Assembly: GCA_040285855.1 (NCBI GenBank)
Contig: JAUFOQ010000004.1
Span: 1,488,001 to 1,552,000, forward strand
From: Eukaryota sp. GEM-RC1
Lineage: Eukaryota
Reading direction: 5' to 3'
Length of the DNA: 64,000 nt
Positions 1 through 43,194 of this stretch are shown here, in pieces. Within the stretch, counting starts at the first letter, position 1, and every line of letters begins with the position of its first letter. The notes under the pieces were generated by a model. That model did no database searches. It worked only from the letters and a program-made list of their open reading frames with translations, and was not told the origin of the DNA. A program made the position numbers and the translations under genes.

Positions 1-210
1 TCAAGAGAGTCAATCATAGAGAGAGGTAGGTGGAACATTGATTGAGAGGATTGTTGGACAGGGTTGAGTTCATCGTTAGGGTATGCAACATGAAGGTAAT
101 GTAGATAAGATTGACGAAAGGCTTGTCTAACCTGTTCTGCTGGAGGAATAGTACAGTATGTAGATGAAAGACACAAACAGATAATAAAGATGAATATGAT
201 GTGTTTGTAA

Positions 211-241
211 GGGGCATTGACAACACCTTTGCCCAAAAGAC
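211..241. repeat. 31-bp hairpin-forming direct repeat, copy 1 (identical to 960-990)
   Basis: GGGGCATTGACAACACCTTTGCCCAAAAGAC occurs identically at 211-241 and 960-990, with an internal GGGCA/TGCCC stem. Confidence 0.9.
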
Positions 242-959
242 CAGTGTTTCAGAAATACGCATACTTCAGCCTAAATACGCCATATTTGAACTTCTAAGTT
301 AAGTACGTACTTCCCATACTTATCGTACTTCTCTAACCCACCTACATTCTTATGCTCATCATCTCTGTTTCTTCATAGAATCCTGTTGAGCAATACGTTT
401 CATCTGTTCTGAGTCGTTCATCCACCTCCATTTACACAAGTTCTCCCAATACTCTTCTTAGTTTGGTACCCAGGCGTTCTTTTCAACCGACTTAGCACAA
501 TGTTAGTCAAGTGGAGTTTATTTCTCACGGTACACACAAAACTTTTGTAAACATCTGCTTCTATAGCACCTCTTATTGAGGGAATTAGCTAACATTGGCA
601 TCAAACCTACTGATGCACCTCCTGACGTCTGAAAGAAGAGCTTGCTTAACCGTTGAAGAACCTTCTTAAGACAAGTACTGTTCCACATCTTGATTTCTGC
701 TGAAGACCTTGAACTGATGTGTTTTTTTCAAGATGGTGATAAAGATTTTTATGAGTTCAATAAATGTTCATACAATATTGGTGTTGTTATGACCCCCTAT
801 CTTGAGAACAAAAGGGGTACAAAAGGGGTCAATCAATGCAGATTAGACTCCAGAACAGGAAAATACGTGAAGTACGTACGAGTACGTATTTACACAGAAG
901 TACGTACTTAACAAATTTGTACGTACACGAACTCCAAAAACTGTTGATTACAAACTGTT

Positions 960-1132
960 GGGGCATTGACAACACCTTTGCCCAAAAGACTTTGCTGTGG
1001 TTCTCAACTCAAATGGATATTCCCAAAGTACACAACTTTGTTAATTTTCATTTTGATTAGAGTATCGAAACCACAGACACGCAGTGAGCTAAGCCCACTG
1101 CGCTGTGTACCGTTAAAAGTACACTAAAGTTA
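960..1132 (-). ncRNA. Candidate Fanzor omegaRNA scaffold and element 3' end
   Basis: Lies directly 3' of the Fanzor stop codon and has five stems: 995-1002/1069-1076, 1024-1029/1035-1040, 1080-1086/1096-1102, 1105-1110/1119-1124 and terminal 961-965/979-983. This is where omegaRNAs lie in TnpB/Fanzor loci. Confidence 0.6.
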
Positions 1133-4100
1133 TTAACGAGAGACCTTCTTCTTCTTGACTGACTTTACGCTTCTTCTTTTAGGCGAACTCATTTCTTTTG
1201 GTGGATTCTTGCATGACGTTTTGTTATGACCTTCTTGGCCACAATTTCCACATGTTGGTTTCTTACGAGTCTTTCCTGTTGAAGTTTTCAACTTTCTGGT
1301 CGCAGTCTTCTTCTTCTTCTGGTCTCTCGCCAAAGTATCCTTACCACTCTCGAGATCTGTTGTTTGAGTTTTAGATCTCTCGAGAGCGGATGGCCTACCT
1401 TGACCATTGATCGTTGCTTCAATGATGGAATAGATATTAATGGCAGAATTTAGGTCTCTATTCCAATAAGTACCACAATCAGCATCTGAGCACTTTACCA
1501 GTCCCCAGGGTGTGGATTTAGCTTCTTCTTCCAATGACTTCTGCTTCACCTCCCACTCTGCTTCCAAAATCCCGCTGGTTTAGAGGATCTTGTTTGTTTT
1601 TGAGCAAAATTTCTCTTCTTAACTTTCTCTTCTTCCTTCTTAGCTGTCTCTTACCTTTGGGACCAAGAACCTTTAGTTCTGAAACATTTTCACATTCTAC
1701 GAAAGTTGATTTTTCCTTAGCACATTTGGAACAACACTTGCTTGTTCTGTATTCATCAACAAGAAATATTTGGTATCCATATCTTCTTAACATTTTACGG
1801 ATTTCCGCTCCTCTAACAGTAGACGTTTTACCCTTTCTTGTTTTACCTTTTGAGCTCCAATCCCCATAGCCAATGACGACGTCTTCTGGAGGTCCATATA
1901 TTAAATTGAAGCGTTCTAGCATGTTTTTCTCCGAACGTTGGTTATTAGAATAAATTTGGAATTTCCTCTTTCTAAACCAGTCATCTTCGTAGAAAGAACT
2001 CAAATATACGTTATATCGTTCGGCTTCTTTAACACATGTTCCAAATGTGTCACTGAAACACGACTTTCTTTCCCCGTTTGATACAGCATTGGAGAATTGG
2101 TTAACGACATCTCTTCCTGTTACAAGAATTCTATCAGGGTGGAGAACCAAAAAATCTTTAAGTTGTCTTTCAGTGACAGTTTCGTCTGGTGATTCGATAG
2201 AAAATTCTTTCAGTTTTCTATTTTCAGATTTACGATATTTTTTAAATTTCGTATCATAAGCTCTTTCTCCCGCTGTGTAATTAAACTTCTTCCATTTGCG
2301 CTTAGCCTTTTTCTTTGATTTTACATCATTATTCGAATTTTTCCAATCTTGTAACTGTTTCTTTCTTTTCTTAATTCCTCCTCTTTTCTTACTTCTGATT
2401 TCTGAGGGTAATCGTTTTTTGAGTGGATTATTTTCAGAAATATCTTCTTCTTTAAGCTCATCGACTGTCTTTTCTGAAACACAATTCATTAAATCATATT
2501 CATTGGGATCGACACCGACAATTCTTTTTTTTTCAATTGTAATTCTTGAATATTCTCATTTGATAAAGAGTGAATGTATCTTTCCGAAGTTCCGAGAGAT
2601 TTAGCAGTAAAATCTTTGAAAGTATTTCCATCTTCATCAACTAAATCTTTCCTCATTAAAACCAAACAACAAGAAATTCCATCAGTCAGAATTGAAGAAT
2701 ATCTAAAGACAAATGATTTTGTTGGTGCCACAGCTTTGTCAGTAAGGACCTGATCAAAGACCTTTTTTCTTATTTCATCTGCATTTTTCCCACGTATATG
2801 AACAAATCTATCATTCATCCAACCTGTGTCCAAACGAATATGCTGAGGAATCAATGTCTTCGTCATTGGAAAAGGGTTGTTTACACTGATTGGTTTTCCA
2901 TCAACCAAACACAAAGATTGTATTGTTCGGTTTATGTACAGAGCATGAGAAATTAACTCTGTCGGCTTTGCTTTCTGTAAATAGTAAATGTTCTTTTTGA
3001 AAACATTGGAAACAAAGAAAATTTTAAATACGCAAAAAACCTCAACGTTAGTTCTTCACGTTGATTAGGGAAAATCTCGTGATCTTCAATTGGAATGTCA
3101 TCAAAATTTCCATTGATAATCGAATCTCTGACTGAATTCAATTTCGAAATCAATTTTTTCTTACTAACTTGATCATTGATTTGTTCAAGTCTGACCTTCT
3201 TTCTTGTTACCAGATTAAAGAATCTGAATACATAATCATGAAAATTTTTGACCATATTGTTTGCATAATTTGTAGAAATTTGTTTGGCAGTGTAGTGAAA
3301 TATGGAAGACATTGACGTTGAGTCAGGAAAAGATATTTGATTGGATCCAATTTCAGTAGATAACTGCTGTAGCAGTGGAGAAAAGTTGTTCAAGTAGTGA
3401 AATGCAATTTTTTCTTTTTCGTTCATTTCTAGTCTTGAAGATTTTTGGAAATCGTCAATCACTTTTTGAGCCTCTGCTCTTGACATTTCTAGTTCTGACT
3501 CTGTAATTGAAGAACCAGTTGATTTCTTCACATACATCCGTCTCAATACTTGTCTAATAGAATCGTGTTTAAGCAGTTTTTTCAAATCTGGTAAGACTAC
3601 GGAAAACTTAGTGTAGGGGAAAACAGATGCATCATCAGAATCAGGCGTTGTATCATGGCTCTTCATTAATTTACGTTCATTTAATGCCAACAAGTCAGAA
3701 AGTTCTGATGGATACGAATCAAAATCATGTTCATACATTAACTCCATTTCACGAAGTCGTTTCTCAAAAAAAATCATGTTCGTACATTAAATCTCGTTCT
3801 TTTGATTCCGAAACAGAAGATTCTAAGAGATATGGACGAAAGTAATGACGATTCATCAAATTTAATTCACATCCACGTGTTTCAAACTCACAAATAAGGA
3901 GATGTTTCAAAAAATTAGAACCCCTTACTGTTGCTCTTTGATTTCGGATAACACAGTCTTTAATTAAGACAATATTATTCTGATCTTTTATAACTTTCTC
4001 CAATCCCTTTTTCACCACTTTAATTGGATGGCGCTCTAGAACATGTTGAGTTTCTTCATCAAAGAAATATTCATGTAATTCAGTTAGACAGTTAATTCGT

Positions 4101-4822
4101 TGAAGTAAATCATCAACCAGAGTAATTACTTTTGCATTATCAGTCCACAATTTGAAGGTTTGCTTGTTGTGTGCGAGTAGGTTAAACTCTTTCTCTATTT
4201 CTTTGTTAACGGTTATGCCTGGTACTTTTCGAAATTCTGTGAAGTATGTAGTTAATTCTAATGACGACAAAATTAAATTCGGTACATGTTTCCGAAACAA
4301 TTTTGAACAAACATTTTCCAAACTTCTACCACCTTTGAAGACATAAGTAGACTTTGTAACATTTGCCAAGTCTAGAGAAACAAAAGGTCCAAAATTGCAA
4401 AGCTTACACCATCTATGAAACCAGTTGGGTACGTAGGGTCTGTATGGATTATCTAAATGAAAATTGGTCTGAATCTTGAACATTTCACACCGTTTAATCA
4501 AAAAGGAAACAACAGTTCATCAGTGTTATAACCAATCAACAATCTGGGTTTTGTTTGGCATAAAACTTGGATAAGTTCCCCAATCATGGCTTCTTCTGAA
4601 GCACAAACAATTATTTCGACATTTTCAAATGTATTGTTTATGTTCTTTTACTAAAAATAACAGTTGAAGTGAAATTAGCATAGATAAATTTGAGACTGAT
4701 AAAGATTATTTTGTCTTCTTTATCCAAAGGATTTGCAAACAGTTCTGCTCTCGATGCTTCAAAAAACTCCAAAAAACTCCAAACTTATCGGAAACACATT
4801 CCCTCTTTTCCTCTTTTAACAT
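1133..4822 (-). CDS. Fanzor1 RNA-guided endonuclease with N-terminal PolB-type exonuclease-like domain and C-terminal CCHC zinc knuckle (about 7 frameshifts, mostly in homopolymers; start uncertain, may extend to 5171)
   Basis: Joined ORFs 3764-4501, 2953-3777, 2489-2914, 1518-2489 and 1133-1567 give collinear Fanzor1 motifs: IKVVKKGLEKVIKD..LIKDCVIRNQRATVRGSNFLK, YTAKQISTNYANNMVKNFHDY, FPMTKTLIPQHIRLDT, ILTDGISCCL, RuvC-I IVGVDPN (D 2508-2510), IGYGDWS, RuvC-II LVDEYRTSKCCSKC (E 1752-1754), C-x4-C..WNRDLNSAINI (RuvC-III D 1454-1456), then CGNCGQEGHNKTSC. Confidence 0.88.
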
Positions 4823-5195
4823 TTTGTGTTGATTCTATTGGAAGACGGTGCTAGATGTATTAGTTAGTCGCTGAGTAATGTCGCTGAGTAATATCATACT
4901 GGTTTGAAAGTAAGATTTGATCTATAAACAAGAAGACATAGATGTTAAAACGAAGTTTACTATTACAAAAAGAAGTCAGAGATGATACATATAAACATAC
5001 AAACACACATCCTCCATCACTACTACTGGTGTGATATAGAAAATTCTTGCATATGAATCGTATGGAAGGACAAATGTTCACAGAATCAATATAAAAGGAC
5101 TTGAAGTCGCGAACTGCGGAAATGTGAGATTGCAATACCCCGACTGAAATACAGTCCCTGGATAAAGTCATGGTTTGAAGTGAAGGAGAAATTTA

Positions 5196-7892
5196 ATGAA
5201 GACCAAGTTTCCCTGCGCTCAAACAATCCATCAACTCAGTGCCACCAACCACTATACACAACATCAATCTCACAGATGACCAACGTGAGATCTTTAACGC
5301 AATCACTACCAGCAGACACAACTTCTTTGTCACTGGTGGTGCAGGATCAGGAAAATCTTATCTTTTACATGCTCTCAAATACTGGTGGAGTAACGTCGGA
5401 TCTCGTCTCATGCGTGCTAATGGTGAAATCTTCTTCACTGCAACAACTGGGGTTGCCTCACCTGTTTTTGGTGGACAGACCATACACTCACTGTTTGGTT
5501 ATAAGTTTATGAAAGAAGAAGAATCCATACATGATGTTATTAAATGTATGCCATCAAATGTCAAATCATTGTTAAAAAAAATTACTCCAAAAAATTCAAT
5601 GTTAATCATTGATGAAATTTCAATGTTGTCCTCCAATTTGTTTCAACGGGCGAGTGACATTTTGGGCGAACTTATGCACACGCAAAATGGTCACTCCCCG
5701 AAGAAACCATTTGGAGGAATTCAGATAATTTGTTTTGGGGACTTTCTTCAATTATCCCCTGTTGTGAAAAGTCTTGATGGAAAAGGAAATCGAAAAGTGG
5801 TAATTTCTGATTTCGCTTTTTCATCAAGAGCTTGGAACAATTTAAATTTTAAATATTGTGAACTGGCTGGTAGTATTCGACAGCAATCAGATTCCCAATT
5901 TTTTAATTTTCTAAATCAATTGAGATTGGGTCTTTTTGATAATTTTATGAGATCAATTCTGCGTAATCATTTCGAAACAGCAGAATCTGTTGAAAACCCA
6001 ACAATTTTATACGGAAAGAATACTGATGTTGCTAGAGAAAATTTAAAACAATTCAAAATTCTGGCAAAAATTCAGATTCAATTGAATTTGTAGCTGTTGA
6101 CAAATTCAATGAATCTGAATTAAAATCTCAAATTAGAAAAAGAAGTTCTAGATTTCCGGTCAATGAATCTAATTTGGAAAAATGTTATGACATTGAAACT
6201 TCTGTGCTGAAAAATTGTTTAGATGACTTTGCTGAAAAAAAACTAGACTGCGTTGTGGGTGGACAAGTGATGTACACTCAAAACAAGCCTGAACTTGGAT
6301 TAGTTAATGGTTCAAAAGGAGTTATTGTTAATGTTTCAGATACATATATTGATGTTCGGTTCAACGCTGAAGCAGAACCGAAAAGAATCAGTCAGTCAAG
6401 GTTTGCTATCGAACACTTGAACGAAATCGGAAGACCTGTTCAAGTGGCGAAAAGAATTCAGTTTCCGCTAAGACCTTGCTGGGCGATAACAGTGCATCGA
6501 TCCCAAGGTTTAACAATTGACGGTATTGAAGTTGCTATCCAGTTTTGGGAATATGCCCAACTTTATGTGACCTTAAGTAGGGTTAGGTCTTGGAGGAGTT
6601 TAAAGATTTTAAGCATTGGAAGAAGTTATCCGGTACCAAATTTGGAATTGTACCAATGGTATTATTCAACTTTTCATCCTGTTAAGCCATCCACTATTGA
6701 TTTGTATGTTTTGGGAAATCAACATTGTCTTCAACGAGATTTCAATCATTTTCATTTATTGATTGCGAACTTTTGTGCAGAATCGAGTGTATCAGTTATG
6801 GATGATGTTGTTGTTCCTGAAGATGTTCATTGTGTTGATGAAGTTGTTGATGAAGTTATTGTTGATAATGTTGATGAACAAATTATTGACTTGGACAAAA
6901 ATCATGTAGACAAATCGAATTTATTTGAAACAGAAGCACTACTATCAGGACCCGATTCTGGTGATGAATCTGACAGTGATACAATTTCAACAAGTTTAGA
7001 TGATTTTGTTGTAAATGATGAACTTGAAGAAGATGAAACTAATATTCCTCTCAAATTTATTAATTGTGACTCAATTTTTAACAAAAATTCCCCAGAGATT
7101 TATGTGAAAAAGTCTAAACTTCCTCAATTACCACGAGGCAACATCACTCTACCATCACTTCCACGTTTGAAGAAAACCTCTTTACCAACGAAGAATTTAT
7201 TATTACAAAAGAATATTAATGCTGGTGTAGAAAGAAAAAGTTCCCAAGTGTTTCCTCTTATTGATGATGAAAAACGATTTTGTCTCAAGGAAGTTCAGAC
7301 TGAAAGCTTTGAAAATGAAAAATGTGATTCCATAAGTGAATATCAACAAACTGACAATGTGAATTATGAAACAATATCATTGTCTCCTATTTTGGAGTAT
7401 AATCGTGTTGCTACTTCAAAACAATTGAGAGTGGACTTAACTATTGGAATTCAGTCAATTGTCGATAATGTACTAAATTGTATTGGATCTGAATCTGCAT
7501 CAAGTATGGAAGTGAAAACAATAAGAAACTGTTACATTACCGATGTGATTAATAGGGATAATGTTGATGAACGTTATTGTAGAGGTGTGCTTGTGGAATT
7601 GTTTCATGTTTTGAAAGAGTATTTGAAAAATGATGAAAAGACTGGTATGTGTGTTTTATTTGAATTATATTTAATTTTGAAAAGATTGGACAATATAGGT
7701 AATTTTGATAGTTTCATCTTGTATTACAAATGTTGTATTACACATCTTGTATTACAAATGTTGTATTACACATCTTGTATTACACATCTTGTAAAACACA
7801 TCTTGTATTACACATCTTGTATTACACATCTTGTAAAACACATCTTGTGTTACAAATGTTGTATTACAAATCTTGTAAAACACATCTTGTGA
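5196..7892 (+). CDS. PIF1-family (SF1B) 5'-3' DNA helicase with acidic C-terminal extension (frameshift near 6065; start uncertain, 5196-5239)
   Basis: VTGGAGSGKS (Walker A), TATTGVA, TIHSLFG, LIIDEISML, PFGGIQIICFGDFLQLSPV, IRQ, LVNGSKG, QFPLRPCWAITVHRSQGLTID and QLYVTLSRVRS across ORFs 5239-6093 and 6174-7892. Confidence 0.92.
7715..7890. repeat. 14-bp tandem minisatellite, about 12 copies (consensus CATCTTGTATTACA)
   Basis: Directly visible repeats of catcttgtattaca, aatgttgtattaca and catcttgtaaaaca, overlapping the 3' end of the PIF1 ORF. Confidence 0.9.
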
Positions 7893-7959
7893 CAACTAAA
7901 AGACAATAGATAGTGACAATAGACTGACATAAGTGGCTTAACTTTATGAGCAAAAGAAA

Positions 7960-8211
7960 AATATAATCAATCAAGAATTCAAGTCGACATATGCTTTCAG
8001 ACAGGTGACGGTCAGAATGAGAAGATGAAAGATTATCAGAAGAAGGAGTAAATGCACTTTTTATCCAGCGAGAGATCGTACTTTGCGAGACAAGGAAGAA
8101 AGAAAGATGGATCTTCCCCATCCAGAGATAGGACCAAACAGCCCTCACTCTGGTGTCTTCTGAAGCGTGGATAGACATGCTCGTTAAGTCGAGTCTTGAG
8201 TCCCAAAGCAT
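7960..8211 (-). pseudogene. Fragment of an IS630/Tc1-mariner-like transposase N-terminal helix-turn-helix
   Basis: HASEDTRVRAVWSYLW..FLVSQSTISRWIK is HTH-like; HASEDT(R/K)VR recurs at ~48120 joined to an IS630-like C-terminus. Confidence 0.5.
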
Positions 8212-9458
8212 TTCAAAAGTGTATCCTATAAGTAAAAAGAGTTTGTGGGAATTGGGTGTGTGGGGGAATTGGTAAAATGCTGTGAGTTGGTTTTTGGGTG
8301 CTTAACCCAAATTTCCACCCAACCACCCAATTCTCTCCAACCAACCATTTCCATTTTCTGGTCAATCCCATTTTCTTCGTGGTTTCTTGTCATGCACTGC
8401 CTTTCCACAACTACGAACAGCTTGTGATAGGCTGCTTTACGCTCTTCAAAATGAATGGCGATTTATACCTTGGGTCCTTTTGCACTCATAGCTAACTTCC
8501 CTAACTGTCTCTTGCGATGGACTAAGATCAAGTAAGCTGTAGTATCTCTTGGAATGCGTCTGTTTATTCAACTGTAGTGTCTCATAGAATGTTGATTCCT
8601 TATCGTTGTGAACAGACTGGTTTATGGATGTTGATGTGCCATTGTCGCTTTTCTATAGTATCATCGTTTATAGTCTTAGGTTGTTTGTACGTGAAACATA
8701 GGCCATTATTTAACAAGCAGGATAAGTTCCTTATCCACATCAACTATCCACTGTTCACAGTTAGTTGTATAGAGAAACAGAACAAGAATAAAAGCCCAGC
8801 CTGCATAGCGTTCCTCATATACCTTCTGTCTCGTTTCGTCACTATTTGCCATCGTGTTTCAGAAACAAGTCGTCTTCGTAGATGACATGCAGATAGGAAC
8901 ATGTATCAAGAATGTTTGGCATACGGAAACCAGTAAGTAACAAAAGGCCAAATAAGATCATGATGTTTATTGATACTGTTGATAGTGCTGAGCTTGTCAC
9001 ACAATGCAAGGTCGTTTTTTACGTGAAACTATAGAGACTATTTGATCGATCTACTTAACAGTGGTCCTTTTGGGACCAATGGAATGGAAGGATCTCTTTT
9101 GATCAGGGAGGTTGTGGAATACATCGCGCAAATGCATTCCATAAGATTTGGGTCCTTCTGGGGAGTCATCAATGTTGTTACCCTCTACTGTTTTGATATG
9201 AATCCCATCGATGGAATGATCAGTGTATCAGCAAGAGAAGTGTTTAGTGTTTGGAACTGAAGCACAGATTGCCTGCAGAGAGAAGACGTATGTTGTAGGA
9301 GACATCAAATGTTTGGTTGGTAAATAGGTGGAAAGTGGGAGTTAAGAATCTCCCATGAAATTCACAGTGGGGATACTACTGTAGTATTCACCCAAAATGA
9401 AAACTACTTTGGCAAAAGAGAGTTTCAAAATCTTCCTGAACAACTCATCATCTACTTA

Positions 9459-16300: not shown

Positions 16301-17474
16301 AGTCAACCATGAATTTTCTGTGTCCAGTGCCATTGCTTTCATTATGTTATTTATTTTTGTGCGCTTCATTGATAAACGTTTTTTATTTGTAAATGTATTT
16401 TAATCAAAAACCTAAAATTTCAAACTGTCGAGGATGCACCATTCCAAAGAAATTTCGTCAGCAGTCACCTCAAATTCATTGATTGCCAGAATGAAACTGG
16501 GCTTTTCAGTGATACCTAAGTCAGGATTAGGATTTTGACTATTGGCGTCTAGGTCGGAACTAGGGCTTTGGTTTGTACTATCACTAGATGTAGTAGTGTG
16601 AAGTGCTCGATTGGGCAATTGCAAGCTGTGGTAATGTTATGTTTACAAAAGCTACAGTATGTATCGTTGGTATTGCAGTACATGTAAAGAGCAGAAGTGA
16701 TTTAATTATGCAAATAGGACTATGAACATGACTCAATGTAGTACAAAAGTACAAATCACATACCAATTGTATTAGTATTACCACACCAATAGTATAGTAC
16801 TCACCAAGCTTAAACCCACAATCCATTGATGAGTCACGAGTCCTGACACTAACAAAGTTAAGAATATGTTCTTGTAGAAGGGAGTGTAAGTGAATGAAGA
16901 GACTGAGATGAACAAACGAATCATAAAATAACTTTTTCGAAACAGAAACGTGTTTCCACGCAGCAACTATGTTTCATATTGAGCACTACACTACTGGAAA
17001 CATTTAGTCTCACAGAGAACAATTTTGTCTTATTCTTTTTGAAAAGTAATCTTGTGAGACTATATTTGTCCTGGAATTTCAAACTGCATCATATATTTTT
17101 GAAGTAAACATTACTTTTGTAAGTCTATCATGAATAATATTGACTGTAAGTTTAAATTCTATAAAACGAGATCAAATCCATGTTCAATTAGTAGAACATC
17201 AAGAAAAAACTATGTTATGATAGATTGGGGATCTCTAATTGATTGGAGCCTAGATGATGACGATCATTTATATGCTCGTGAGTAAATCTAAAGTATTGAA
17301 GTCTATCTTAACACTTCCACAATTGGGAAAAATTAGTCTTAGTACAGAATTAGTTACCCTGGAGTTTGGTGAGACTAGTATTGGGTTGGCTAAATATAAT
17401 TAGGAGTACAGAATTAGTCACAGTGAATTTCATACAGTTCAAATTTTTTCAGTGCAACTTGATTTTGATTTCTG

Positions 17475-20400
17475 ATGCTACTTTTCCCTATTCAATTCAT
17501 GATCATGATCATCGGACTTCTTCTACTGTGTGGTTGTGTTCTCGGCTCGGTCTTTAAATGGGATGTCCCAAATTCTGGACTTTGGTCTGAAGGAAGCAAT
17601 TGGGATCAGGGTGATACTCCTTCAATATCTTCTTCCGTTGTTATTCCCCCGTTTTCTACTACGATTACACTCACTGTTGACGTTTGTGTTACTGTATATT
17701 CTCTGAACCTGTCTGCCAATGCAGTTCTCTTCTTCAAAGACAACTCAACTCTGACTATAACTGATACTCTTCTCCTCAATGGAGGTACTTTTCACACTGA
17801 TCTGTCTTCTTCAACGTCCTTTACATCAGTAAACTCTCTTGTTTTGGACGCTGACCTTGTCTCTCTCTTTTCTCACAAGCTTATCGTCACTGGCCTCTTT
17901 GACTGGAAACGTGGTTCTATTGATCTGGATGGGTTCAGTGAGCTTGTTCTAGAGAATGTTACTTTTGTTTCTCTTAATGGTGATCAGTCTCCCTTGAATT
18001 TTGATGTTCTTCATGTTTGGGGAAGGAATGATTATGGTCAACTTGGAGGAGGACTATCAGAAAAACAAGAATTTCCTGAGTCAATCACTTTTCCTGGTGC
18101 TATCAGACAAGTTTTCTCTTGGGCGTCACCATTCCCTAGTTCTGTTGACAAATGGTGACGTCTACACTGCTGGACGAAACGAATGGGGACAACTAGGCTA
18201 CGCTGATGTTGACCGGAATATTCATGAGAAAATTGAAATTTCAAATGTTATCCAAATTGTTGCTTCTTATTACTCAAGTTACGCCTTGAATATTTCTGGT
18301 TCTGTGTACTCTTGGGGACGCAACAATCACGGTCAATTAGGTTTAGGAGATTCAATTGACAGATATACTCCTATTTCAATTCCAGATTTAAGTAATGTTA
18401 AACAAATTGCTGGTCGATATCAAACAACCTTTGCTTTAACTAGAGATGGTAAAGTGTATGGATGGGGATGGGGTGATTATAATGTTCTGTGTAAAGAAAG
18501 TACTGATAATGTTCTATCACCAATGTTAATTGAGTCCTTGCAAAATATTAAATTTATTTCTGCTAGCTTGACAGCATATTTCATTACTAATGATGGTTCT
18601 ACTCTTACTTGTGGTAGAGAACCGGCTGAGTCCGTAACTTACTCTACTCCAACTCCATTTGCTGAGGATATTGAGTTCACTTTTATTGAAATTAAAGGTA
18701 GTCATGCTCTAGGTATTGATGTTAACCAAACACTTTGGAGTTGGGGTTGGAATCATGTTGGTCAGTTAGGAACAGGTGACACCTCTGATTCTAGTAATCC
18801 ATTGGAAGTAGTCAACATTGGAAAAGTGATTACTGCATCTGGAGGATACTATAGTTCCATGGCCGTTGACGTAAACAATGACGTGTGGTTTTGGGGTGAC
18901 TATGATCGTGGCCATCCGGCTAGTACTAGTCCCCCAAATGATCAAAAATGGATACCAGAACGTATTAGCGAACTTACTGGTAAATGTATTACTGATTTTA
19001 TTTTACATGATGGTTCCAATTTTGCCTATATTTCTGTTCCTTTTTCAATCGACTTAATCACGTCATCTTCAAACCAAGGACTACTTACGGTGAATCATTA
19101 CAATGTAAATACAGCAAATTTATATGATGATGGTCTTCAACAATTAATTTTCATATATGTACCAGTTTTTCTTTCTGGGTCATTGAATTTGACCAGTGAT
19201 TCTCTCTTTTTCTTATCTGAATTCAATTTAAACGGTATTTTAGCTATCAATTCTCCAATGGAAACTTTTTTTGATTCTTTTATACTAGGAGCTTCTGAAT
19301 GTTCAACTCTTTCTTTAGAATCCAATGTTTTTGTTGAAACTTTATACTGGCATTGTGGAACAATTGAAGGTGTTGGAGAATTGAAAGTAAACACGTTGGT
19401 TCTTTGTTCTTCTAATCCTGAACCGGAGTTTTTCAGTAAAATTTCTATTGGTAAAATGATGACTTCTGAATTAAATGTTGAATTAAATCTTACTACTGAT
19501 GTAGTTCTTTCCATCAATGGAGTAATTGAAATACCACAGTTGTCTTTCCACTCCGCTTTCGGGGTTAGTGTTACTTTTGATGGATATTTTAAATTGGTCA
19601 ACACCTCCTTGAGTCTTCGTATTGATTCTAATTTGAGTTCAAATATTGCGATCGATCAATATTCCAAAATTGAAATTCTTTCATCCTCCTCTACCCTAAG
19701 TTCTAACCTTCAATTGTTTCTTTATTACGATTGGTCAAATAGTCCTTCTGGAAATGATCTTTCTGGTAATAATAATAATGTACCAGAATTTTCTGGTACT
19801 GAATGGAATCCTGATGGTTATTACCAATTTGAAAGTAATTCGGACACTCTCAATATTCCAAATATTCCAGGGAAATTTGGATGGCAATCAGCTACAATTT
19901 CATTGTTGATTTGGTTTGACTCCGACCGTGGAAATAGATTTGGTCTTGGTACATGTGGATGTGGAATATCACTCGGTGACTACTTTTATTATGGTTGTTC
20001 TGGATCATCAATTAATGTTCCGAGAAACCAATGGATTAACTTAGTTATGACTACTTTTAATAATCAAGCAATGTTTTATATCAATGGACAATTAGTTAGA
20101 ACAATCAATTCTCAGTACATTTGTGAAACTCAGTCAGACTTCTTTCCATTAGGAAATCGTTTCTTTCATTCTTCCTCAAATGGACAATGGGAACGCGGCA
20201 CTCATTCTAATGATGCCTTTAAAGGTAGAATTAAAAAGTGTATATCCTTACTCGAGGTCTTACTGAATCAGAAATCACCTCAGAGTTTGTCATTCCTCCT
20301 TCAATTACTGGACTTGGTTCTATTGAATTAAAGAACTCTGAACTTACTTTGTTAGAGTACACTTCAATCAGTTTCTCTAAGTTAATAATTGACTCTTCAG

Positions 20401-23400
20401 TTATGTACTTGCACAAACACGTATTTCTACAAAAACAGGGTATTTATGCCTTCAACGAATCCGAGATCATTATCAAAGATGTAGCTTCCACTTACTTTGA
20501 CCATTCTCATATCAACTTAACCAACTCCACTATCATTCACTCTGCTAATGAATTAAACTTGTACAATCTTACACTTACTAACACTGTCTTTAAGGTACCT
20601 TCAGTTACTGAGAAGTTGTCAATTCATGCTTTGTTTCTTGACTCTGACTCTCAGATTGATAGTTCAATTGTTTTAATTCTGAATCAACTTCATTGGATTC
20701 ATGGAGAGATGAGCTATTTGGATGTTCTAGAATTTAAAGGTTTGTTTCTTTATGGGGAGTCTAAATCTTGGCCTGAAAACTCTTTAACTATTCAAAATGA
20801 ATTGTACTTCAATAATTCTCTTGATTTTTCAATTTCTCATCTCAATTTAATTACTGTTTTTGTCACTTGTTTTCCTGGTTCAGAACTGCTTCTTGATACA
20901 CATTCTTTTAATGAAAGTTTACTTGAGGTTGAGAACGAGCTTCATTTAACTTCCAATTGTTCTCTTATTTCACTACTACCAGTCAAAAGTACCGGGTTTG
21001 TGTTTGTTGCAGGTGATTCATTATTGACACTTTTTAAAGATTTAGATACAACTGGTATGATTTTTATTGGTTGTTATGGTGAGTTAGAACTGATGAATAG
21101 TACTATTACTTTTGAAGGGTCTGGTCCTTACTTACATCCAGACCTATTTTTGTATTATAACTGGGTCAATTCATCCAATCCAATTGATCTATCAGGAAAT
21201 CATGATCCCAATGCAATCACAATTGATGGACCAGAGTGGAAAACTGACACTACGGGTGGTTATTTAGATATCGCTCCTGGCGACACTCTTCATATTCCAA
21301 ATATTCCCGGAGAATTTGGGTGGAAAGATGCTTCAATTTCTATGTGGGTGTACTGGGAAGAAGGAGGAATGGGTTTTGAATTTGGTTCGTCTTGTAGGCT
21401 TGAAATACGAGAATACGAGATTTTTTGGGGTACTATTCGCCAGTTACGTATTATATTTCCATCACAAAATGGTTCCACCTCGGCATTACTTTTCAACGAT
21501 CAGAAGTACGTATATATGCCGATGGAACTCCTATTGGCTCAATTATTGTTGAACAGCCTTCTTTCTGTTATGACTCGTCCATTCCTTTTAGTCTCTCTGG
21601 GCAAGGTGATCATTTATTCAAAGGAAGAGTTCGTGCAGTTCAGATCTTTACGAAGACTTTAACAATGTCCGAGATCAGTCTACTATCATTTGATCTTCAT
21701 GCTCGTATCTGGGGTCAAGGAAAACTGTCTCTAGTTGATTCTGAAATGAGGATCTCTCCTTCTATCTTTGGAATTGAACTGATTTCTCTAGTTTCATCAA
21801 TTGTTTATTTAGATCGATCTCCACCAAATAAGTTGAACTCAGTCGAAGTCTACTTCAGTGAGCTTTATTATGATGGAGCTGAAGCTGAACTTATTATAGA
21901 TTCTCTTTATCTAAGAAATACTTCTTCTATAGTCACCAATGCATCGCTTATTGTAAATAATTTCTATTGGTTTGTTGGTAAGTTGTTTTCTCCCAGTATT
22001 CAGTATTTAAATCGTCTTTTTCTATACGGAGAGTCTAAAATTTGGCCTCAGAACTCTCTTGTAATTAAACAAGAATTGTATTTCAATAATTCGCTTACTT
22101 TTTCAATTCATCATCTTAATTTAATTATTGTTTATGTTACTTGTAATCCTGGATCAGCACTTTTCCTCGATTCGCTGTCTTTTGAAAACTTTTCACTTGA
22201 AGTCAAAAACCAGCTCCATTTATCATCTAACTGTCGTCTTAATTCTTTTCTACCAATTGACAGTACTGGTTTTATTGCTGTCGGACGGGAATCAGTGATG
22301 ATTTTAAACAAGGAATTGAAAAGTTTTCATATCATAGTTGTTGCCTACAAAGGCCAAATTGTCTTGTACAACAGTGATCTTACTCTTAGTAATGCTCGCT
22401 CTTACAGTGACAATGATCTCTTTTTGTACTGCAATTGGCGACTGTCACGAAATCAAATTGACCTATCAGGAAATCATGATTCCAATGAAATGATAATTGA
22501 TGGACCAGAGTGGAAAACTGACGATATCGGTGGATATTTAGATTTAAAACCTGGCGATACTCTCTTCGTTCCAAATATTCCTGGAACTCAAGGTTGGAGA
22601 GATTCATCCATTTCTTTATGGGTGTACTTACAAGAAGGAGGAATGGGGTTTGGTTGGGGTACGTGGCATTGTATGTTTTGGATAGAACCTACTCGTCTTG
22701 TTTGGGCTCTTGGTGCCACAGACATGCCTTTTCCTGTTCGTAAATGGATTCATTTGGTTGTAACAACTACTCAGTTAGAAGCACGTGCTTATGTTAATGG
22801 TGATTACTTGGGTACACACACTCCCAGGGAGCCTTACTTTTGTTCTAATGGCCCACCTTCTTATTTCCATTTGTCTCAAGTCCATGAGCGAAATAGATTG
22901 CCGTTTCGAGGTAAAATTCGTGCGGTTAAGGTATTTAGAAGAACTTTAACCCCATCTGAAATTCGTGATTTAAATTTTAATTTATCAACTGCTAATAGTA
23001 TACATGGCAAGGGTGAACTTTCTCTTGTAAATTCTGAGGTACAACTTTCATCCTCGAAGGTTGACATCAGATCTATTGCTCTAATTTCATCAACTCTTCA
23101 TTCAAGTGACGTTATCTTGGACAATTTAAAAAATCTAGAACTCTCCAATTCATCAGTAATTTTAACTCATGACTCAAAAATTCTTTCTGATTACATAACT
23201 ATCACCTTAAATGCAAGTGAGCTTTGCTATGATAATTCAGTAGACATTTCAGCATCAAGTGTTAGTTTGATCTCTATCAACAGTCGTTTTCAGAATGATT
23301 TCGACTTCACAAATTTTCCTCGTTTAGATTTATCCTCTTCAATTTTTGAGTCAGCTTCTGATACTGAAATATCTGTTAGCTCCTTTTCTTGTTTTGATTG

Positions 23401-26400
23401 TCAAATATTGGGAAAATCACCACTGAAAATAGAATTTTATTCTGAAATCAACTCGGGTAATTTCTCATCTTCCTTAATTGTTCAGGAATCAGCGGATTAT
23501 TCATCAGTGTCTGGTCAAGTACAATCACCTAATTCTTTTGACTTCTTCAGTCACGTGATTCTTGATGACGTGTCAGTTTCAGAATTCCAGTCTTCTAGTG
23601 GTTCAATCACTTGTCATTCTGATGTTTTGATGAGAAATGATGTTACATTATCTTCAACTACATTCACTTCTGATGCTGATATCATTCTTTCAAATGCAAA
23701 CATCGTTTTAGGACAAAATTTGGAATTGCTAGAATTTCAAATTTTAAGAGGATCAGGAATTTTTTTTGACAACACTTCACATTCTGGTAAAATAATTCCT
23801 TTACCTTTAATTATTTTTGATGACAACCTTTCACTTTCTTCTTCTTCTACTATCTCTATTCAAATCAATAGTGATAATTCTTCTACTCAAGTAATTGTTG
23901 GTTCAACTGCTTTTCTAGATGGTACAATAGAAGTAGAATTTGATCCTTTTAAACATTGGGGTGGTAAACAATACGTACTTATTGATTCTTACCATCGTTT
24001 GGGTCAATTTACTTCCAGTCAAAAGCACGTGTTCTTCTATTTTTAATATTGAGTATACTTCTACTTCAGTAATTGGATATTTTGATGACTATATTGCTCA
24101 TTTAAACACCATTTCCTACATGTCTACCACTGGTGTTGATGATCCTTGTTGTGGAACTTTTGACAGTCCATGTGCTTCTTTTAAAGGAGTTTTAGAAAGA
24201 ATGGGAAGTAAAGGGAAGGTTTATTTCCACGAAGGAACCTACACTTTTGATCAAGGATTAGGTACAATAAATAATGTTGATTGGGAAGTGATTGGTCTTG
24301 GTGACGTGATCATTGAAGGAGGTGATGAGACGTTATCAGAAGTATTAGATTCCAAGTTTTCACTTTCAAACATTGTGGTTTATTGTAATTCTCCTAGTTG
24401 TTTTTCTTTTGTTGATTCCATTATCCAATTAATTAATTCAAATATCTTTCATGAAGCTGGTTCTACTACAATACTGACTGATACATCTACAGTTTTTCTA
24501 TCAAACTGTAGCTTCGAGTCGAATTCCTCCAGTTTATTAAGGTCTGGTAATTCCCAATTAGTTTTTCAAAATGTCACTGTTTCTGGATCTTTTAAGGATT
24601 CTTCTTTTATTCTTGACAACACATCATTCGATATTTTTTACAACACTTTTTTAAATATTGAGTCATCATCATTATTTCAGCTAACAAAGTCTGACATCAC
24701 TTTATCTCATTCAAGTTGTTCAAATTCTAACTTTTCTTCTGCTGTTTTTGATCTTACGGAGAGTGAAGTCAGTCATCTTGGACTTTCTTTTGAGTCTGTC
24801 AGCACTGTTATTATCTTTTCAATCAAATCTAGCGTATTTGTTATCGATCATTTTTCAATTACTTCCTCGATCAAATTCGATCAGTTACTATCAGCAGAAA
24901 GTGCTGAAATCAACCTCGATGATTGTATTCTCCTGAGTCTTGATTCATCAAATAATCTCATTTTTTGTCGTCATCAAGTATTCTTCTCAAAAACACTTCA
25001 TTCCAAGACATTAATTGCAAGTCACTAGTTGAATCTGTAAATAGTCTAGTTGAGTTAAACAATTTGAACTTTTATAACGTAACTTGTGACACGTGTTTTG
25101 ATGTATCTGGAAGGAGTCTAGTTGTTGAGTTATTGGAATTCTTTTACACATCTGGCACTGTTTTTGAATTATCACAAGTTGAATTAACCACTATACTATT
25201 TTTAAATATTTATGATAGTAATTTGGAATCAGTTGTTGTATGTTTCAACACAACTTCTGAAATCACCGATATTTTGGTTTCCAACTCTACATTGGAAAAT
25301 TTTCTAAAATCAGAAGATTCCTCTGGAGAAGTTTTCAGTTTTGTTTCGGATAACTCCACTTTCAATTATATGATTGCTTTAAGTGATGTTGATATCCTAT
25401 TCTCTGATTTCGTGTTTTCCAACACTTCTGCGACACATATCTATCACGTGTTCAACTCCAACATTGCAATCAACGACTTTTTGTTAAATGACGTGATGAT
25501 TTCAGACTCTTTCTTGTCGTCTTCTGACTCTAACATAGTCATCAATTCTTTTACTTATGTAAATGGTAACTGTCAGAACTCTTCTGGACTTTTTGATCTA
25601 AGAAATGGGTATCTGAATATAACAAATTTTAATATTTCCGAATTCATGGGATCTCTATTTGCTTTGAATGGTGTGGAGTACTCAGTGTTACAGCATGTTA
25701 GTTTGCATGAACTTCAATCGGACACCGTCTTTCTTTTTGTTAACATCAGTATTTCCATATCCGATGTTTCAATTTTGTACTCAAATGTTGACGTTGTTTT
25801 TGAATCGTACAATTCATTGATATTTCTTGATGAACTAAATTCCATTGGCTTAAACAGTTCAACAATTGTTAATGCATCGTCGTCTGTTTTAATCCTCAAT
25901 CACGTGAACTTCTCACAATTGTTGACTGTACGTGCTTTAAGACTTTTGGATGTGACTCTTGAACTCAATTACTTCAGTATTTCTCATTCTATTTTGACTT
26001 CAGGGTTTATTATGACCTGCTCTACTAACTCAACTCTTCTATCCGTAGATATTACGAACATCAATGAAAATTTTAATTCTTCTAGTGACTCTAGTGATAA
26101 TTATTTGTTCGTCATCAGAGGAGGATTTTTTTCTTCGCAAAATTCTCATTTCAGTCACGTCTATAGTAATTTTCTCATGCTCGAATCCTCTGTTGCGTCT
26201 TTTCACAGAGCTGAAATTTCAAATATAATTGGTTCTCCTCTATTCAACATTGTTGACTCTCATTTAAATCTTTCTTCAATTACACTAACTCAAACCAATG
26301 CTGACGTACTCTTAACATGTCTACATTGTACTGGATCGATGGACCACTTACTTATAGAAAACTCTTCTTTTACTTCACTTTTTCATTTAGACTATGGATA

Positions 26401-29400
26401 TATGAGTTTTAATACTACTTCCTTGACTAAGATTAATACTTCTTTAGTTTTTGAAACATTTAACTGTAATGTTACTATTAATCACTTGGATATTGGTTTT
26501 ATGAGAATTTATAAGTCATTCATCTACTCAGAATTTAGCATTATTGTAATGAGCTCAATCAATGCTGCTTATATACGTGATGCTTCTGATCCGTTGTTTA
26601 TGTTCAATCACTCAGAACTCACAGTTGTTGATATCTTTTGTCTGCAATTGAGTGTTCAATATTCTCTTTACGGATTCATCAGTAGTAATTTCCGCTCTTT
26701 CTTTGAAAAATTCCAATACGTCATCTGTCATATTTAGTTCTAATTCTAATTTGGAGATATCCAATAGTTCATTCTATTCTATTGAGGTTCACGTACTGGT
26801 CTCTGTAGATAATCTTTCTAATGTAACTATTGAAGGGTCAACGTTTTCTATGATTTATGGAAGTTCTTTCTTCAATTTCAATGATTCAACGTTTTCACTA
26901 ACTCTTTCCCATTTCAACATTCTCAATTTAAAACACTTCCTCTCTCTTACTTCTTCTTCAGCTTCTTTGTCAAATAGTTCTATTGTTGACGTGGAGTCTT
27001 CTCAATCACTTATCAATGCCGACGATTCAGTGGTCACAATCAATTTGCTTGAATTTAAAGATGTTGTGTTGGAGAGCTTTTTCGATCTAAATGATTCTAC
27101 ATTAAATCTGTTCTATGTTACTATGGACTCTAATCTCACTTTGATTAAATCATTTTTGATTGGGCATATCTCAAATCTAGTTTTCAGCAATATATTCTTC
27201 TTTGATCTTTCGACTCTTAGTGATTTTCCATTAATTAATTTAAGTAATTCCGATTTCAATAGTGACCTTCTTGCTTTTGAGTTACTTAATTGTACTCTTT
27301 TCGAATTCATTTCTAGTGAAGTTCAGCTTTCAAATACTTCATTCAAGAGTATTAATTCTTCTTCAATTGGTTTTATATCTGATTCTTCTTTAATCATTAG
27401 TTCTTCTGTTTTTCCAAGGTAAGTATTGGTGATTTTGATTTGATATCAATGGTTAATTCCTCAGCTAGCTTTGACAAGGTTGAGTTTGATAACGTTACAG
27501 CTTTTTCTTTATTTACAGCAAATAACTCTTCAGTTTTCACTAATTTGTTGACGTTTTCTTCCTTTAATTCGGTTCATCCTTTCAAATTCACCGCTTCTAG
27601 TTCTTTGACAATAGAAAACTCGCTATTCTTCAGTTCATTCACTAGTATTTTATTCTATTTCAAAAATTCCAACTTGAGTTTAATCAATACGGAACTGATC
27701 AATATGACAACTCAATCAGTTCTAATAACAGAAGCTGCAATTATTCACCTTTATAACATGAAAATTCAGGATACATTTGTTTTTGATGTTTTTTCGAAAT
27801 TACTGGATACGAATGTACAAGTTGAGAACCCAATTGTCCGAAATTCCCAATTTGTTGAGATGTTCCAAGTAATTCAATCACGTGTTGATCTCTATTCAAT
27901 TGACTTTGGTTCAACCAATTCTCTGACAAATTCTCTATTTAATGTGTCTCTCAGTACAGTAAATGTCCATGATATCAATGTCAGTGGTCCTTTCAACAGT
28001 AATCTACCTCTAATTCAAGTTCTTAATTCAAATTTCACTATCTCTCAGTTCAATGCTAGTCACTTAAATACTCCTCTTTTCAGTTGTTACTCTTCATTTA
28101 CTTTATGGAATGACGTCATTGTCTTAAATTCCACTGCTGATTTCCTAGTGTCTGTTGATTTTTCGAATAGCAGTTTTTCAAATGTTGAGATTTCAAATTC
28201 AGTCATTAATAATGATACTTTTTGGTAATATCATCAGCCATTGTCGTTAACCGGTTTTTTCTTGATCACATCACAAGTTCTAATGTATTTTTATTTTCAG
28301 ATTCTTTAGGATCATTGGCAAACTCTAAATTCCATCAAGTTAAATCTGAAACAAGTTTTCTACATCTAGACAGTTCTACATTCAAAATTGAAAACATGTC
28401 TTATTCAAATGTTGACGCCATTTATCTCATGAAATTAGACATGTCTGATATTGACTGTAATGGAATTCTATTGTTGACATCACATATTGATAATGTCATC
28501 TTTTCTCAGAACTCTAACGTTTCATTGTCTCAGTTCTCTATTGATTCTACTAATAGTAAGAAAGTCTTTACTGTTTTGAACAACTCCTTGATGAATTCTA
28601 CTGTTTTAAATATTGTCAATAGTTCCATAACTTTTCTTGTTATTTCTGGTGAAAGTACAATTGAATTTAATCAAATGCAATTGTTGCATCTTTCTTTGTT
28701 AATTCAGCTTTATCAACTCTTTTCTTCTTTTCCAAGTCTATGGGTTTGCTATCAAATATTCATGCTGACGTCATCAATGTTCCAATAGTAATCTCTTCAG
28801 ATAGTGTCATCTCTTGCCGACAAATTGAAATTTCGTCCACTGTTTCTTATATATCTTTTTCCTCGAAATATTCCAAGTTTTCCCTTGTTGATTCTCAATT
28901 TCATAACGTGTCTAGTAGTTTTATCTATGGATTTAACACCGCAATACTTCTTAACGATGTAACTATTTCTGGATTTACTAAATATTCCAGGCCGACATCC
29001 GACAACGAGTTTAATGATGAAAATTTTAATATGTTTGATCTTTTTCATCAAATTTTAGTACAACCGAACTTATCATTAATAATGCCACGTGTCAACATTT
29101 GATATATTCGTCCAATTCTACATTAACTCTTCAACACAACACCTTTTCAAATTCAGTTCTGAATTCTGCTGTGCACTTCAGCAGTACAATTTTACAGGCG
29201 GAAGATTTAATTTTCCAAAATTTGACAACATTGCACACATTTTGACACTTCTAAACTCCAGATGTTCTCTCAATTTATGGCTTATGCATGATATCAAGTC
29301 ATTAAAATTGGTTGAAGTATTGAACTCTTCATTGTCTGTTTCAAAGCTCACAATCACCAACTTTGATGCTCCTTCTATATTCAATATTGACCACTCTGTC

Positions 29401-39500: not shown

Positions 39501-39543
39501 GCTAGTTTTGAACAGTCCAAGCCGACAAGAGATTTGTGTTGGA

Positions 39544-40800
39544 AATACCTCATTTGTACAACATTAAAAATGTTCGGCCAAATTCTTTCTCAACTATGAA
39601 GGATCAGTATTATTATCTTTATGAACGTAATGTCTTTTAAAATTGTTACAATTGTAGACTTTTATCATTTCGTTTCAGTATTCATTATCTTAACTGTCCA
39701 TGGGCAAGTTTTTACCCATGGTAGTTCTGACCATGGAATGTTAGGTCTTGGAGAAATGACATCCGCTGAGACTTAATCCCCTTCCTGGAGAAGAACCACT
39801 GTGATGGTTGGGCAGTGGTTGCCCTGGGGGATGATTGTTTATTTGGTTGGGGTTGGAATGACCAAATGGGTCTTACGCATAGTTGTGAACATAAGAAACC
39901 ATTCTTTGTATGTCTTATTCTCTCTCTCTAAGATGGATTGGTGCCGAATTACAAACACGAGGTAGATAGTCTACATTTGTACCCATTTTTAGTTGGGAAG
40001 GGGGCGTCCATCCTTAAGTTAAGTTATGGAACTTTTTTATGGTTATTAAAAGAAATCAAGGGTGACTCTGTTGTCTACTAGTAAGTTACAAGACCAGTGT
40101 TTCTTCAATTTATCAGGACCTATTATGACGTATTTATTTAACCTCTTCAAAATTCTTCAAATACCACTTTTATCTCAGCTATCAAAAATTGTGGAATCAT
40201 CAGTAACAATCTTTTCAACTGCAAGAAAAATTCGTTCTGTGTTCTCAACGATTCAGAATTGTCAATGAAATTTGATCGTTTCAACTCAGAAAGAAGTTTT
40301 ACAATTTCATTGGGTGGTAAACTTTTGTCTGAAATTGTGTTGCCTTGGATAATTGGTTTGAGTTGACATTAGGAAGCTCAGGAGAAACAAAACCATAGAC
40401 AAACCAAAAGAATATACTTCTTGTTACAAAATATGTCGTGCTTCTTGAATTTTATATTATCAATTAATTATGATCGAGGATTTATTCTGATATTATTTCC
40501 AAATGCAATGCGGAACTTGGTTGAATTTTCACTGATTCGTTCCAAAATATAACGACTTTCAGTTATTTTGGAGTCTGTTGTTTTGAGTAATCACTCAATG
40601 TTTGGATTTGTTCTAGAAAAACTGAATATCAGTTCAAAAATTATAACAAAATTTGAAATTGTTGTGTTTGGTGTTTAATTTCTTTTATCATTCCGTACTA
40701 CAGTTTGATCTTTTGTTTCTTTAAACCAAATTAAGTTTGAACTATTTCAATTGATCTGGTCCAAAATATTGATCTTTCTGAACCTATTTTGATTGAAACA
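39544..40800 (+). repeat. ~1.3-kb segmental duplication copy A (RCC1-like fragment plus noncoding tail)
   Basis: Collinear and highly similar to 43195-44500 (e.g. GAGGTAGATAGTCTACATTTGTACCCATTTTTAGTTGGGAAGGGGGCGTCC in both). Confidence 0.88.
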
Positions 40801-42521: not shown

Positions 42522-42620
42522 GTTTGTTCAATTTTTTTCAATTGTGATTTAATCAGGCTGATGATTTCTCTACTTTAGAGCATTGGCAAATTCTGTCATA
42601 TCGATCTCTTTAATTAGTAC

Positions 42621-42942: not shown

Positions 42943-43194
42943 CACAACGCTATTTCAGAACATGACTATTGAAGAAACTTGTGAATTTCTGATTATCATT
43001 ATTGCAGGTTCAATATCCGAAATTCTAGTGACTTTTCTAGAATCAAATCTCGTTTTCGTAGGAAAGGGTTTTCAATGTCAAAGTCAATATTATTAAATTT
43101 ATTGAAAATTTTCCATATCTGATGTAGATTTTGTTAGTCAATTGTTAATTACTGATTATGTAAAGACAGAAACAGATGAGGGATTTGTTTTGGC

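Follow-up and report, generated by a model that had tools for sequence, protein, structure and literature searches.

An amino-terminal family-B polymerase exonuclease domain on a Fanzor1 of Eukaryota sp. GEM-RC1

Fanzor1 proteins are mostly 600–700 amino acids (aa) long, extend up to about 800 aa and can carry helix-turn-helix (HTH), FRI and REC insertions, according to sources including PMC10530073, PMC10711439, PMC11423790, PMC10432273 and PMC10691335. Here we describe a Fanzor1 locus of Eukaryota sp. GEM-RC1, located at 1133-4822 on the minus strand of a 64,000-nucleotide (nt) stretch of contig JAUFOQ010000004.1 (the whole stretch is hereafter called the window). Like SpuFz1 (8gkh), PpFz1 (9cf0), GtFz1 (9cer) and the giant-virus proteins, it has the WED, REC, RuvC and zinc-ribbon regions in the same order, a TDG motif, a D-E-D triad with the Fanzor-type Glu and a structured segment after the stop codon. 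It differs from them in having a core of ~960 aa, DPN in place of DPG, a putative CCHC knuckle in its tail and an amino-terminal domain of the family-B DNA polymerase (PolB) exonuclease type.

Extra domains are known on other Fanzors, namely the FRI domain of PpFz1 (PMC11423790) and the HTH of Fanzor2 (PMC10530073). These accretions are small and non-enzymatic, whereas the fusion described here adds a second nuclease fold from a replicative polymerase. With the PolB proofreading domain itself (that of Pol delta; PF03104, DEDDy) the fusion shares the ExoI-II-III layout, and a relative of the window protein, P0010, has all of these motifs intact. In contrast to that domain, it lacks a polymerase domain, carries an acidic insertion of ~45 aa after ExoI, forms a clade of its own and, in the window, has lost catalytic residues. 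An RNA-guided nuclease is also joined to a 3'-5' exonuclease in engineered Cas9-TREX2 (PMC13370227); that construct is man-made and has a DEDDh TREX fold, whereas the fusion here is natural and PolB-derived. The word “exonuclease” is absent from the main text of PMC10711439, PMC11423790, PMC10432273 and PMC10691335. Supplements of three papers, searched apart from figures, one scanned file and truncated cells, contained neither terms nor motifs pointing to such a domain; figure S1B of PMC10530073 could bear on it. We found no description of a Fanzor-PolB exonuclease fusion in a literature search that left subscription papers and Repbase outside its scope, in agreement with the initial annotation of the locus, which knew of no description of the architecture.

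The exonuclease domain and the Fanzor1 core

The fusion is seen most directly in one unbroken open reading frame (ORF), 3764-4516, which contains the end of the ExoII helix at its start and the Fanzor start at 4030 (all features of the locus given below are on the minus strand). The initial annotation had placed the second half of the domain and the Fanzor amino-terminus in a single uninterrupted ORF, and this is borne out; the peptides it quoted are likewise all present in the minus-strand translation where it put them. The part of this ORF occupied by the exonuclease second half (4031-4516) comprises 162 stop-free codons, expected by chance with a probability of about 2e-6. Met is absent between 4483 and 3856, and there is no start codon at the Fanzor amino-terminus. 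A read-through from 4781 to 1136 has 1,210 positions, matching the protein of ~1,200 aa proposed earlier.

A profile match to the exonuclease was obtained within 4100-4822, where it had been predicted. The block that carries the ExoII motif, with its catalytic Asp replaced by Leu (4498-4641), matched PF03104 with E=1.8e-5 (24.7 bits, cut-off 23) and PHROG DNA polymerase with E=2e-4, and its best PDB match was an archaeal PolB (E=0.1). The preceding block (4641-4784), which contains the “P..D.II” strand after ExoI, is 52% identical to the relative P0003 and matched a family profile with E=0.003. Read through with X at the breaks, the sequence scored 26.8–30.7 bits against home-built PolB profiles, compared with 7.2 for the best of 1000 shuffles, and HHalign gave 92–95% against PolB over 182–209 columns. 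The block-by-block likeness to the Pol delta of the window, which had been offered as the evidence for the domain, is weak taken alone (blastp E=0.03; Smith-Waterman score of 52, equalled by 3 of 2000 shuffles, obtained on a join that was imperfect and contained stop symbols), but the likeness to PolB is upheld by PF03104, the PolB profiles and HHalign. In NCBIfam the sole match, to Pol II, was weak (E=0.22). A single-sequence fold of the ORF (3767-4516) had a mean predicted local distance difference test score of 33.7 and was not used.

In the second half of the domain the ExoIII Tyr and Asp are both replaced (about 4111-4097, register from the alignment). Compared with PolB profiles alone, the domain part inside the ORF scored 18.8 in HHalign (best of 100 shuffles, 20.9), and it added score with two of four PolB profiles (5/500 shuffles each) and none with the other two. 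Because this half is weak against polymerase profiles, the fusion rested, before relatives were available, on the ExoII helix at the ORF start, the 162 stop-free codons and the lack of Met. A family profile made from five relatives, with no window-type row among them, matched the ORF with E=3.5e-33 and the window Pol delta with E=1.9e-13. No palm, fingers or thumb of a polymerase domain was matched in positions 1-9000 or in the relatives. Insertion of a Fanzor into a polymerase gene was considered and rejected, as no PolB amino-terminal or polymerase domains flank the locus.

Five minus-strand ORFs from 4030 to 1133 together form one Fanzor1. A profile of 53 full-length viral Fanzor1 sequences matched the read-through (X at breaks) with E=5e-82, which, with the PDB matches, confirms the identity originally assigned. 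The same profile has the core begin with the peptide from 4030, which aligns to its positions 14–114 (E=3.3e-6). The amino-terminus, with the first WED strand and a REC helix, occupies 3764-4030, as delimited by the viral profile and the Met positions. The REC region (2953-3786) holds a 16-aa tandem repeat and about 130 inserted aa, and P0002 and P0015 read across its break at 3770. The WED region (2489-3055) contains the TDG motif described in PMC10711439, and Fanzor1 homology is full-length. RuvC-I (Asp 2510), a lysine-rich insertion, RuvC-II (Glu 1754) and the start of the zinc ribbon lie in 1518-2555, assigned from SpuFz1 and PpFz1, which the RuvC-II segment matched with E=1.3e-8 and E=1.2e-7, and from PF07282 (E=5e-4, under the cut-off). 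The end of the zinc ribbon, RuvC-III (Asp 1456), a basic tail and the stop codon follow in 1133-1579. As annotated, the RuvC D/E/D triad is complete (codons 2510, 1754 and 1456), with the Glu of Fanzor type. The DPN of RuvC-I recurs in P0010.

All residues of the motif D-X(125,275)-[TS]-[TS]-X-X-C4 zinc finger-X(5,50)-RD occur in order, with insertions that stretch the spacings beyond the published ranges; the D to TS distance of ~250 codons fits its range, and the zinc ribbon is divided by ~55 aa. The core of ~960 aa, with several insertions, compares with 585–737 aa in 40 non-redundant relatives, no Fanzor fetched from outside the family exceeds 28% identity to it, and it sits on a long branch of the Fanzor tree. 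The putative CCHC knuckle noted earlier has an exact CX2CX4HX4C pattern (1252-1211), although it falls under the Pfam cut-off (zf-CCHC, 12.5 bits against 20.8; E=0.17), and it is not a family trait: it is missing from all three relatives whose sequence extends to the carboxy-terminus, and from all 92 full-length Fanzor ORFs that we examined. The in-frame 16-aa repeat of the REC region (3721-3793) has two copies in the window and three in P0002, P0006 and P0015. In RuvC-II, P0010, P0021 and P0022 have NE where most Fanzor1 proteins have DE; an activity-raising D-to-N change near the active site of a Fanzor is described in PMC11423790, at what may or may not be the position of the P0010 NE.

Relatives of the fusion and their catalytic residues

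We compared ORF 3767-4516 with 1.84 billion representative proteins using phmmer and obtained eight matches, seven of which match PF03104 above its cut-off. With their cluster mates these amount to 22 named proteins, 17 labelled as Eukaryota sp. GEM-RC1 and five as Eukaryota sp. TZLM3-RCL by source. Thirteen cluster mates were scanned; ten match PF03104 at E up to 0.05, eight of them above the cut-off, and the relatives' scores range from 25 to 58 bits. P0010 (1,473 aa) and P0021 (1,479 aa) combine the exonuclease (PF03104 E=5e-13) with a complete Fanzor1 in a single predicted protein, and are collinear with the window over six segments at 30–31% identity (E=3e-97 and 4e-23). The best solved-structure matches of P0010 are SpuFz1 and Pol delta, and that of P0009 is Pol delta; the Pol delta structures concerned are those of yeast and human. 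The sub-family of the window includes the near-identical copies P0002, P0006 and P0015 (97–98% identity for P0002 and P0015).

The junction between exonuclease and Fanzor is crossed by 10 of the 18 proteins that have the conserved GGR motif of the domain, the other eight ending earlier. A long linker is absent there, and the spacing is much alike from one sub-family to the next. The in-frame fusion postulated from the window is thus found in both the ORF and ten predicted proteins, and we consider it almost certainly real. On these predictions it is a family and not a one-off. The suggestion that the two parts are separate genes, or meet in frame by chance, can draw on the absence of a PolB profile match for the second half alone, but is already largely refuted by the single unbroken ORF and by the ten proteins, from two organisms, that cross the junction.

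Word-indexed protein searches found no relatives; since relatives exist, these searches have low sensitivity. ESM Atlas look-ups gave no usable match, and viral contigs scanned with single window proteins yielded nothing. Among 149 Fanzor loci (70 from viral and 79 from metagenome contigs, overlapping), drawn from exact-motif scans in which eukaryotic genomes are under-sampled, no ORF matched the PolB-exonuclease profiles (best E=0.09). A Fanzor start is included in 103 ORFs, 80 of which are preceded by 800 nt or more of sequence, and none shows more than 103 open codons ahead of the core. One locus on an activated-sludge contig (L196:657-3443) has a 929-aa Fanzor ORF with large insertions and no exonuclease match.

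The relatives include both active-type and degenerate domains. P0010, P0021 and P0023 keep the ExoI D/E, ExoII D and ExoIII Y/D; P0009, which stops short of ExoIII, has retained the other two motifs. The ExoII D is lost in P0003, in the P0004-type and P0005/P0008-type proteins and in the window, and the ExoIII D is also lost where that motif is present. In the window copy ExoII D and ExoIII Y and D are replaced, and under our preferred assignment the ExoI E is absent; as read from the alignments, its domain lacks at least three of the four carboxylates whichever ExoI assignment holds. The initial annotation had inferred a non-catalytic module that binds DNA ends or forks. Loss of catalysis is apparent for this copy but is not intrinsic to the domain, and nothing in our analysis supported fork binding.

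To the same annotation the ExoI and ExoII aspartates both appeared lost. The change of ExoII Asp to Leu stands, but the FFEAS block it took for ExoI is probably not that motif. Intact forms have about 45 acidic residues between ExoI and the strand so labelled, and the intact D-x-E-T of P0009 and P0010 lies ~45 aa further upstream, aligned with degenerate versions in the others. The window equivalent of ExoI is thus probably at 4940-4917, with the Asp kept (codon 4922) and no Glu. This is ~50 codons upstream of the start originally chosen and outside 1133-4822, where ExoI had been placed. The upstream segment adds score with the family profile (reached by 1/500 shuffles; segments chosen by eye). 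On the other side, a PolB profile aligns the equivalent block of P0003 to ExoI, and one alignment (A5) agrees. The candidate strand forms the 3' part of an upstream ORF of 110 aa (4860-5192) with a sole ATG at 5171; its frame is, weakly, the best by the codon model, it has no independent profile match, and toward its 5' end it may include sequence of the adjacent Pif1 element. Between this ORF and the rest of the domain is a disrupted linker (4761-4881), equivalent by sequence and family alignment to the acidic post-ExoI insertion of the relatives.

A quick unrooted tree with 29 rows unites the six Fanzor-linked domains tested in a single clade (Shimodaira-Hasegawa-like approximate likelihood ratio test 100), within which the four degenerate domains form a sub-clade (90). 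The Fanzor-linked domains are 36–57% identical to that of the window. Because the degenerate domains group together at these identities, the fold appears to have persisted long after loss of catalysis. The simplest reading would be one capture of an active domain, with later loss of catalysis.

Some relatives carry further modules. A 2A-like motif lies near the amino-terminus of six, one with a substitution, and takes the form GD(V/I)ExNPGP in P0008, P0010, P0018, P0019 and P0021. Similar motifs occur in non-LTR retrotransposons (PMC3708506); in contrast to those elements there is no reverse transcriptase here, the motif alone is not sufficient, and the 2A activity of the relatives is putative. 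Ulp1 (PF02902) is found in P0008, P0017, P0018 and P0019, with catalytic-type motifs seen in P0008 and P0019. These four proteins combine the 2A-like motif, the Ulp1 (SUMO-type) protease and a degenerate exonuclease, to which P0019 adds a Fanzor start, an even more elaborate Fanzor architecture. The 2A-like motif was not found in the window, and Pfam gave no Ulp1 match upstream of the locus.

Condition of the window copy and possible roles of the domain

We favor, at a probability of roughly 0.55, the reading that the locus belongs to a multi-family Fanzor1 element and that the PolB proofreading domain at the amino-terminus of the encoded protein trims, where intact, or holds, where degenerate as in the window, the 3' DNA end expected from RNA-guided cutting. 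Whether this particular copy is functional is evenly balanced. SpuFz1 cuts 16–17 nt (non-target strand) and 20–21 nt (target strand) from the target-adjacent motif (TAM), according to PMC10432273, and TnpB-type nucleases cut the empty site, after which the element is restored by recombination (PMC13565253). A RuvC cut of the empty site would then leave a 3' tail of 16–17 nt on the TAM side. Such a tail would mismatch the element-bearing donor at the junction and would have to be removed before the element could be copied or sealed by repair. Where the catalytic motifs are intact, a 3'-5' exonuclease tethered to the nuclease might trim this tail, and so aid homing. PolB proofreading removes short non-homologous 3' tails in yeast Pol delta repair and in T4 gp43 intron homing. 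In the window lineage, the fold may have been retained after loss of catalysis as an end-binding or protecting module.

A role at DNA ends is, on this evidence, somewhat favored. More tentatively, a Fanzor that resects its own cut with a captured Pol delta-type exonuclease would be a self-contained cut-and-trim homing enzyme of a new type of eukaryotic mobile element, with 2A recoding, with a SUMO protease in some families and with several lineages reduced to a pure end-binding cap. As to the genomic role of Fanzors and the repair of their cuts, the fusion points to end processing as the limiting step. This step becomes testable with P0010, in which a single uninterrupted predicted protein carries the two active sites, and with the natural dead variants of the window lineage. 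The fusion may also be regarded as the natural counterpart of engineered nuclease-exonuclease editors.

Several observations weigh against this reading. A complete exonuclease and a complete RuvC occur in one protein only in the P0010 cluster, known as gene predictions, and the Fanzor link of P0009 is putative. Catalytic residues are lost in four of six sub-families, and trimming therefore cannot be essential. Neither a transposase nor element ends were identified at the locus. Finally, the locus has seven frame breaks in 3.7 kb, compared with 2.2 expected from neighboring genes (P=0.008 per base).

These breaks bear on the strongest alternative, which is compatible with our reading at the level of the family: the fusion is real but the window copy no longer works, Pif1 having damaged or truncated it at the 5' end, and some of its breaks are true mutations. 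Frame breaks are common across the window, an AT-rich eukaryotic DNA in which the long ORFs (Pol delta, kinesins and a cyclin-like gene among them) seem to contain few introns. Pol delta, an essential gene, is itself broken at an A run near 11210, and a 17-kb gene needs at least 17 frame switches. The homopolymer frameshifts invoked in the initial annotation account for most breaks of the locus, but not for two upstream ones, which are tandem duplications of 10 nt (4789-4761) and 13 nt (about 4881-4856). In addition, the adjoining Pif1 copy has GTG in place of ATG, little room is left for a promoter, and P0002 has the same out-of-frame end after the 3020 break. Against these signs of decay, other copies are 97–98% identical, the RuvC triad and the structured 3' segment are intact, and four named Pif1 copies also share out-of-frame ends, as expected from systematic sequencing error. 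No excess of breaks is seen per homopolymer run (P=0.06 to 0.85), and the neighbor rate is biased down because the neighbors were picked from long ORFs. For each of the six breaks of the locus from 4645 to 1550 there is at least one relative that reads through it in a single frame; no relative does so at the break near 4780. A dead copy is thus a real prospect, if short of even odds.

The other alternatives concern the function of the domain, and all appear unlikely. The relatives that carry the 2A-like motif (six) and Ulp1 (P0008, P0017–P0019) would suit an accessory polyprotein of a host transposon, whose exonuclease acts in transposition or against host defense, independently of Fanzor cutting. 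DEDDh nucleases are accessory proteins of P and piggyBac elements according to PMC3627910. However, the 2A-like motif lies upstream of the exonuclease and would therefore not separate it from the Fanzor, the junction is linker-poor and evenly spaced as described above, and no transposase was found. Less probable again is a role on RNA. The omegaRNA guide extends past the element end into the flank and has to be cut to length, and the domain would act by trimming or binding its 3' end. The DEDD fold includes RNA trimmers and a structured segment follows the stop codon, but the nearest matches are proofreading domains of DNA polymerases, and published Fanzors make their guides with no such domain (0/149 loci). 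Poorer still is the view of the captured polymerase fragment as passive cargo with no function. It would explain the loss of catalytic residues in four sub-families and the absence of the domain from all other Fanzor loci examined, yet the frame has stayed open and motifs are shared across sub-families only 36–57% identical, and one lineage has intact catalytic motifs.

Flanking segments and other window features

Directly after the stop codon lies a structured segment (985-1135) that is a candidate for the omegaRNA scaffold and right end of the element. It folds with -51.7 kcal/mol (z=-6.2, reached by 0/200 shuffles; boundaries set after a first fold), and the region after the stop codon also ranked first among 35 windows slid across 151-5400 (best z -2.5). 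Rfam gave no match near it, and three chance-level matches overall. An exact 31-bp direct repeat is present at 211-241 and 960-990, its copies 749 bp apart. Since one copy starts right after the omegaRNA-like fold, it could be a guide, with the other copy its perfect target; alternatively, the two copies may bound a small insertion in which GTAC repeats are frequent (298-313, 861-918).

On the other side of the locus, a Pif1 helicase with a long acidic carboxy-terminal extension (5200-7892, plus strand) is multicopy, in a cluster of 14 at 90%. In the window copy, GTG takes the place of the ATG found in all 13 named copies, and the copy runs into a 14-bp tandem array (about 7715-7896). We rejected Pif1 as part of the element for now, as none of the 13 named copies lies within 25 locus tags of the 17 exo-Fanzor tags in these incomplete lists. 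None of seven viral Pif1 loci had a PolB exonuclease or Fanzor. A Helitron or Helitron2 carrying the Fanzor was likewise set aside, because no Rep domain was found in the neighboring Pif1 and its named copies are not beside exo-Fanzor copies.

Further along the window, a frame-broken gene of about 5,700 codons with a presumed carboxy-terminal membrane part (17469-34716, plus strand) has fragments that recur at 42617, 50519, 51065 and 55599; its repeats are presumably RCC1-like and LamG-like. A dispersed duplication of about 0.9 kb (39528-40761 and 43179-44472; 88% identity) belongs to an RCC1-like gene family.

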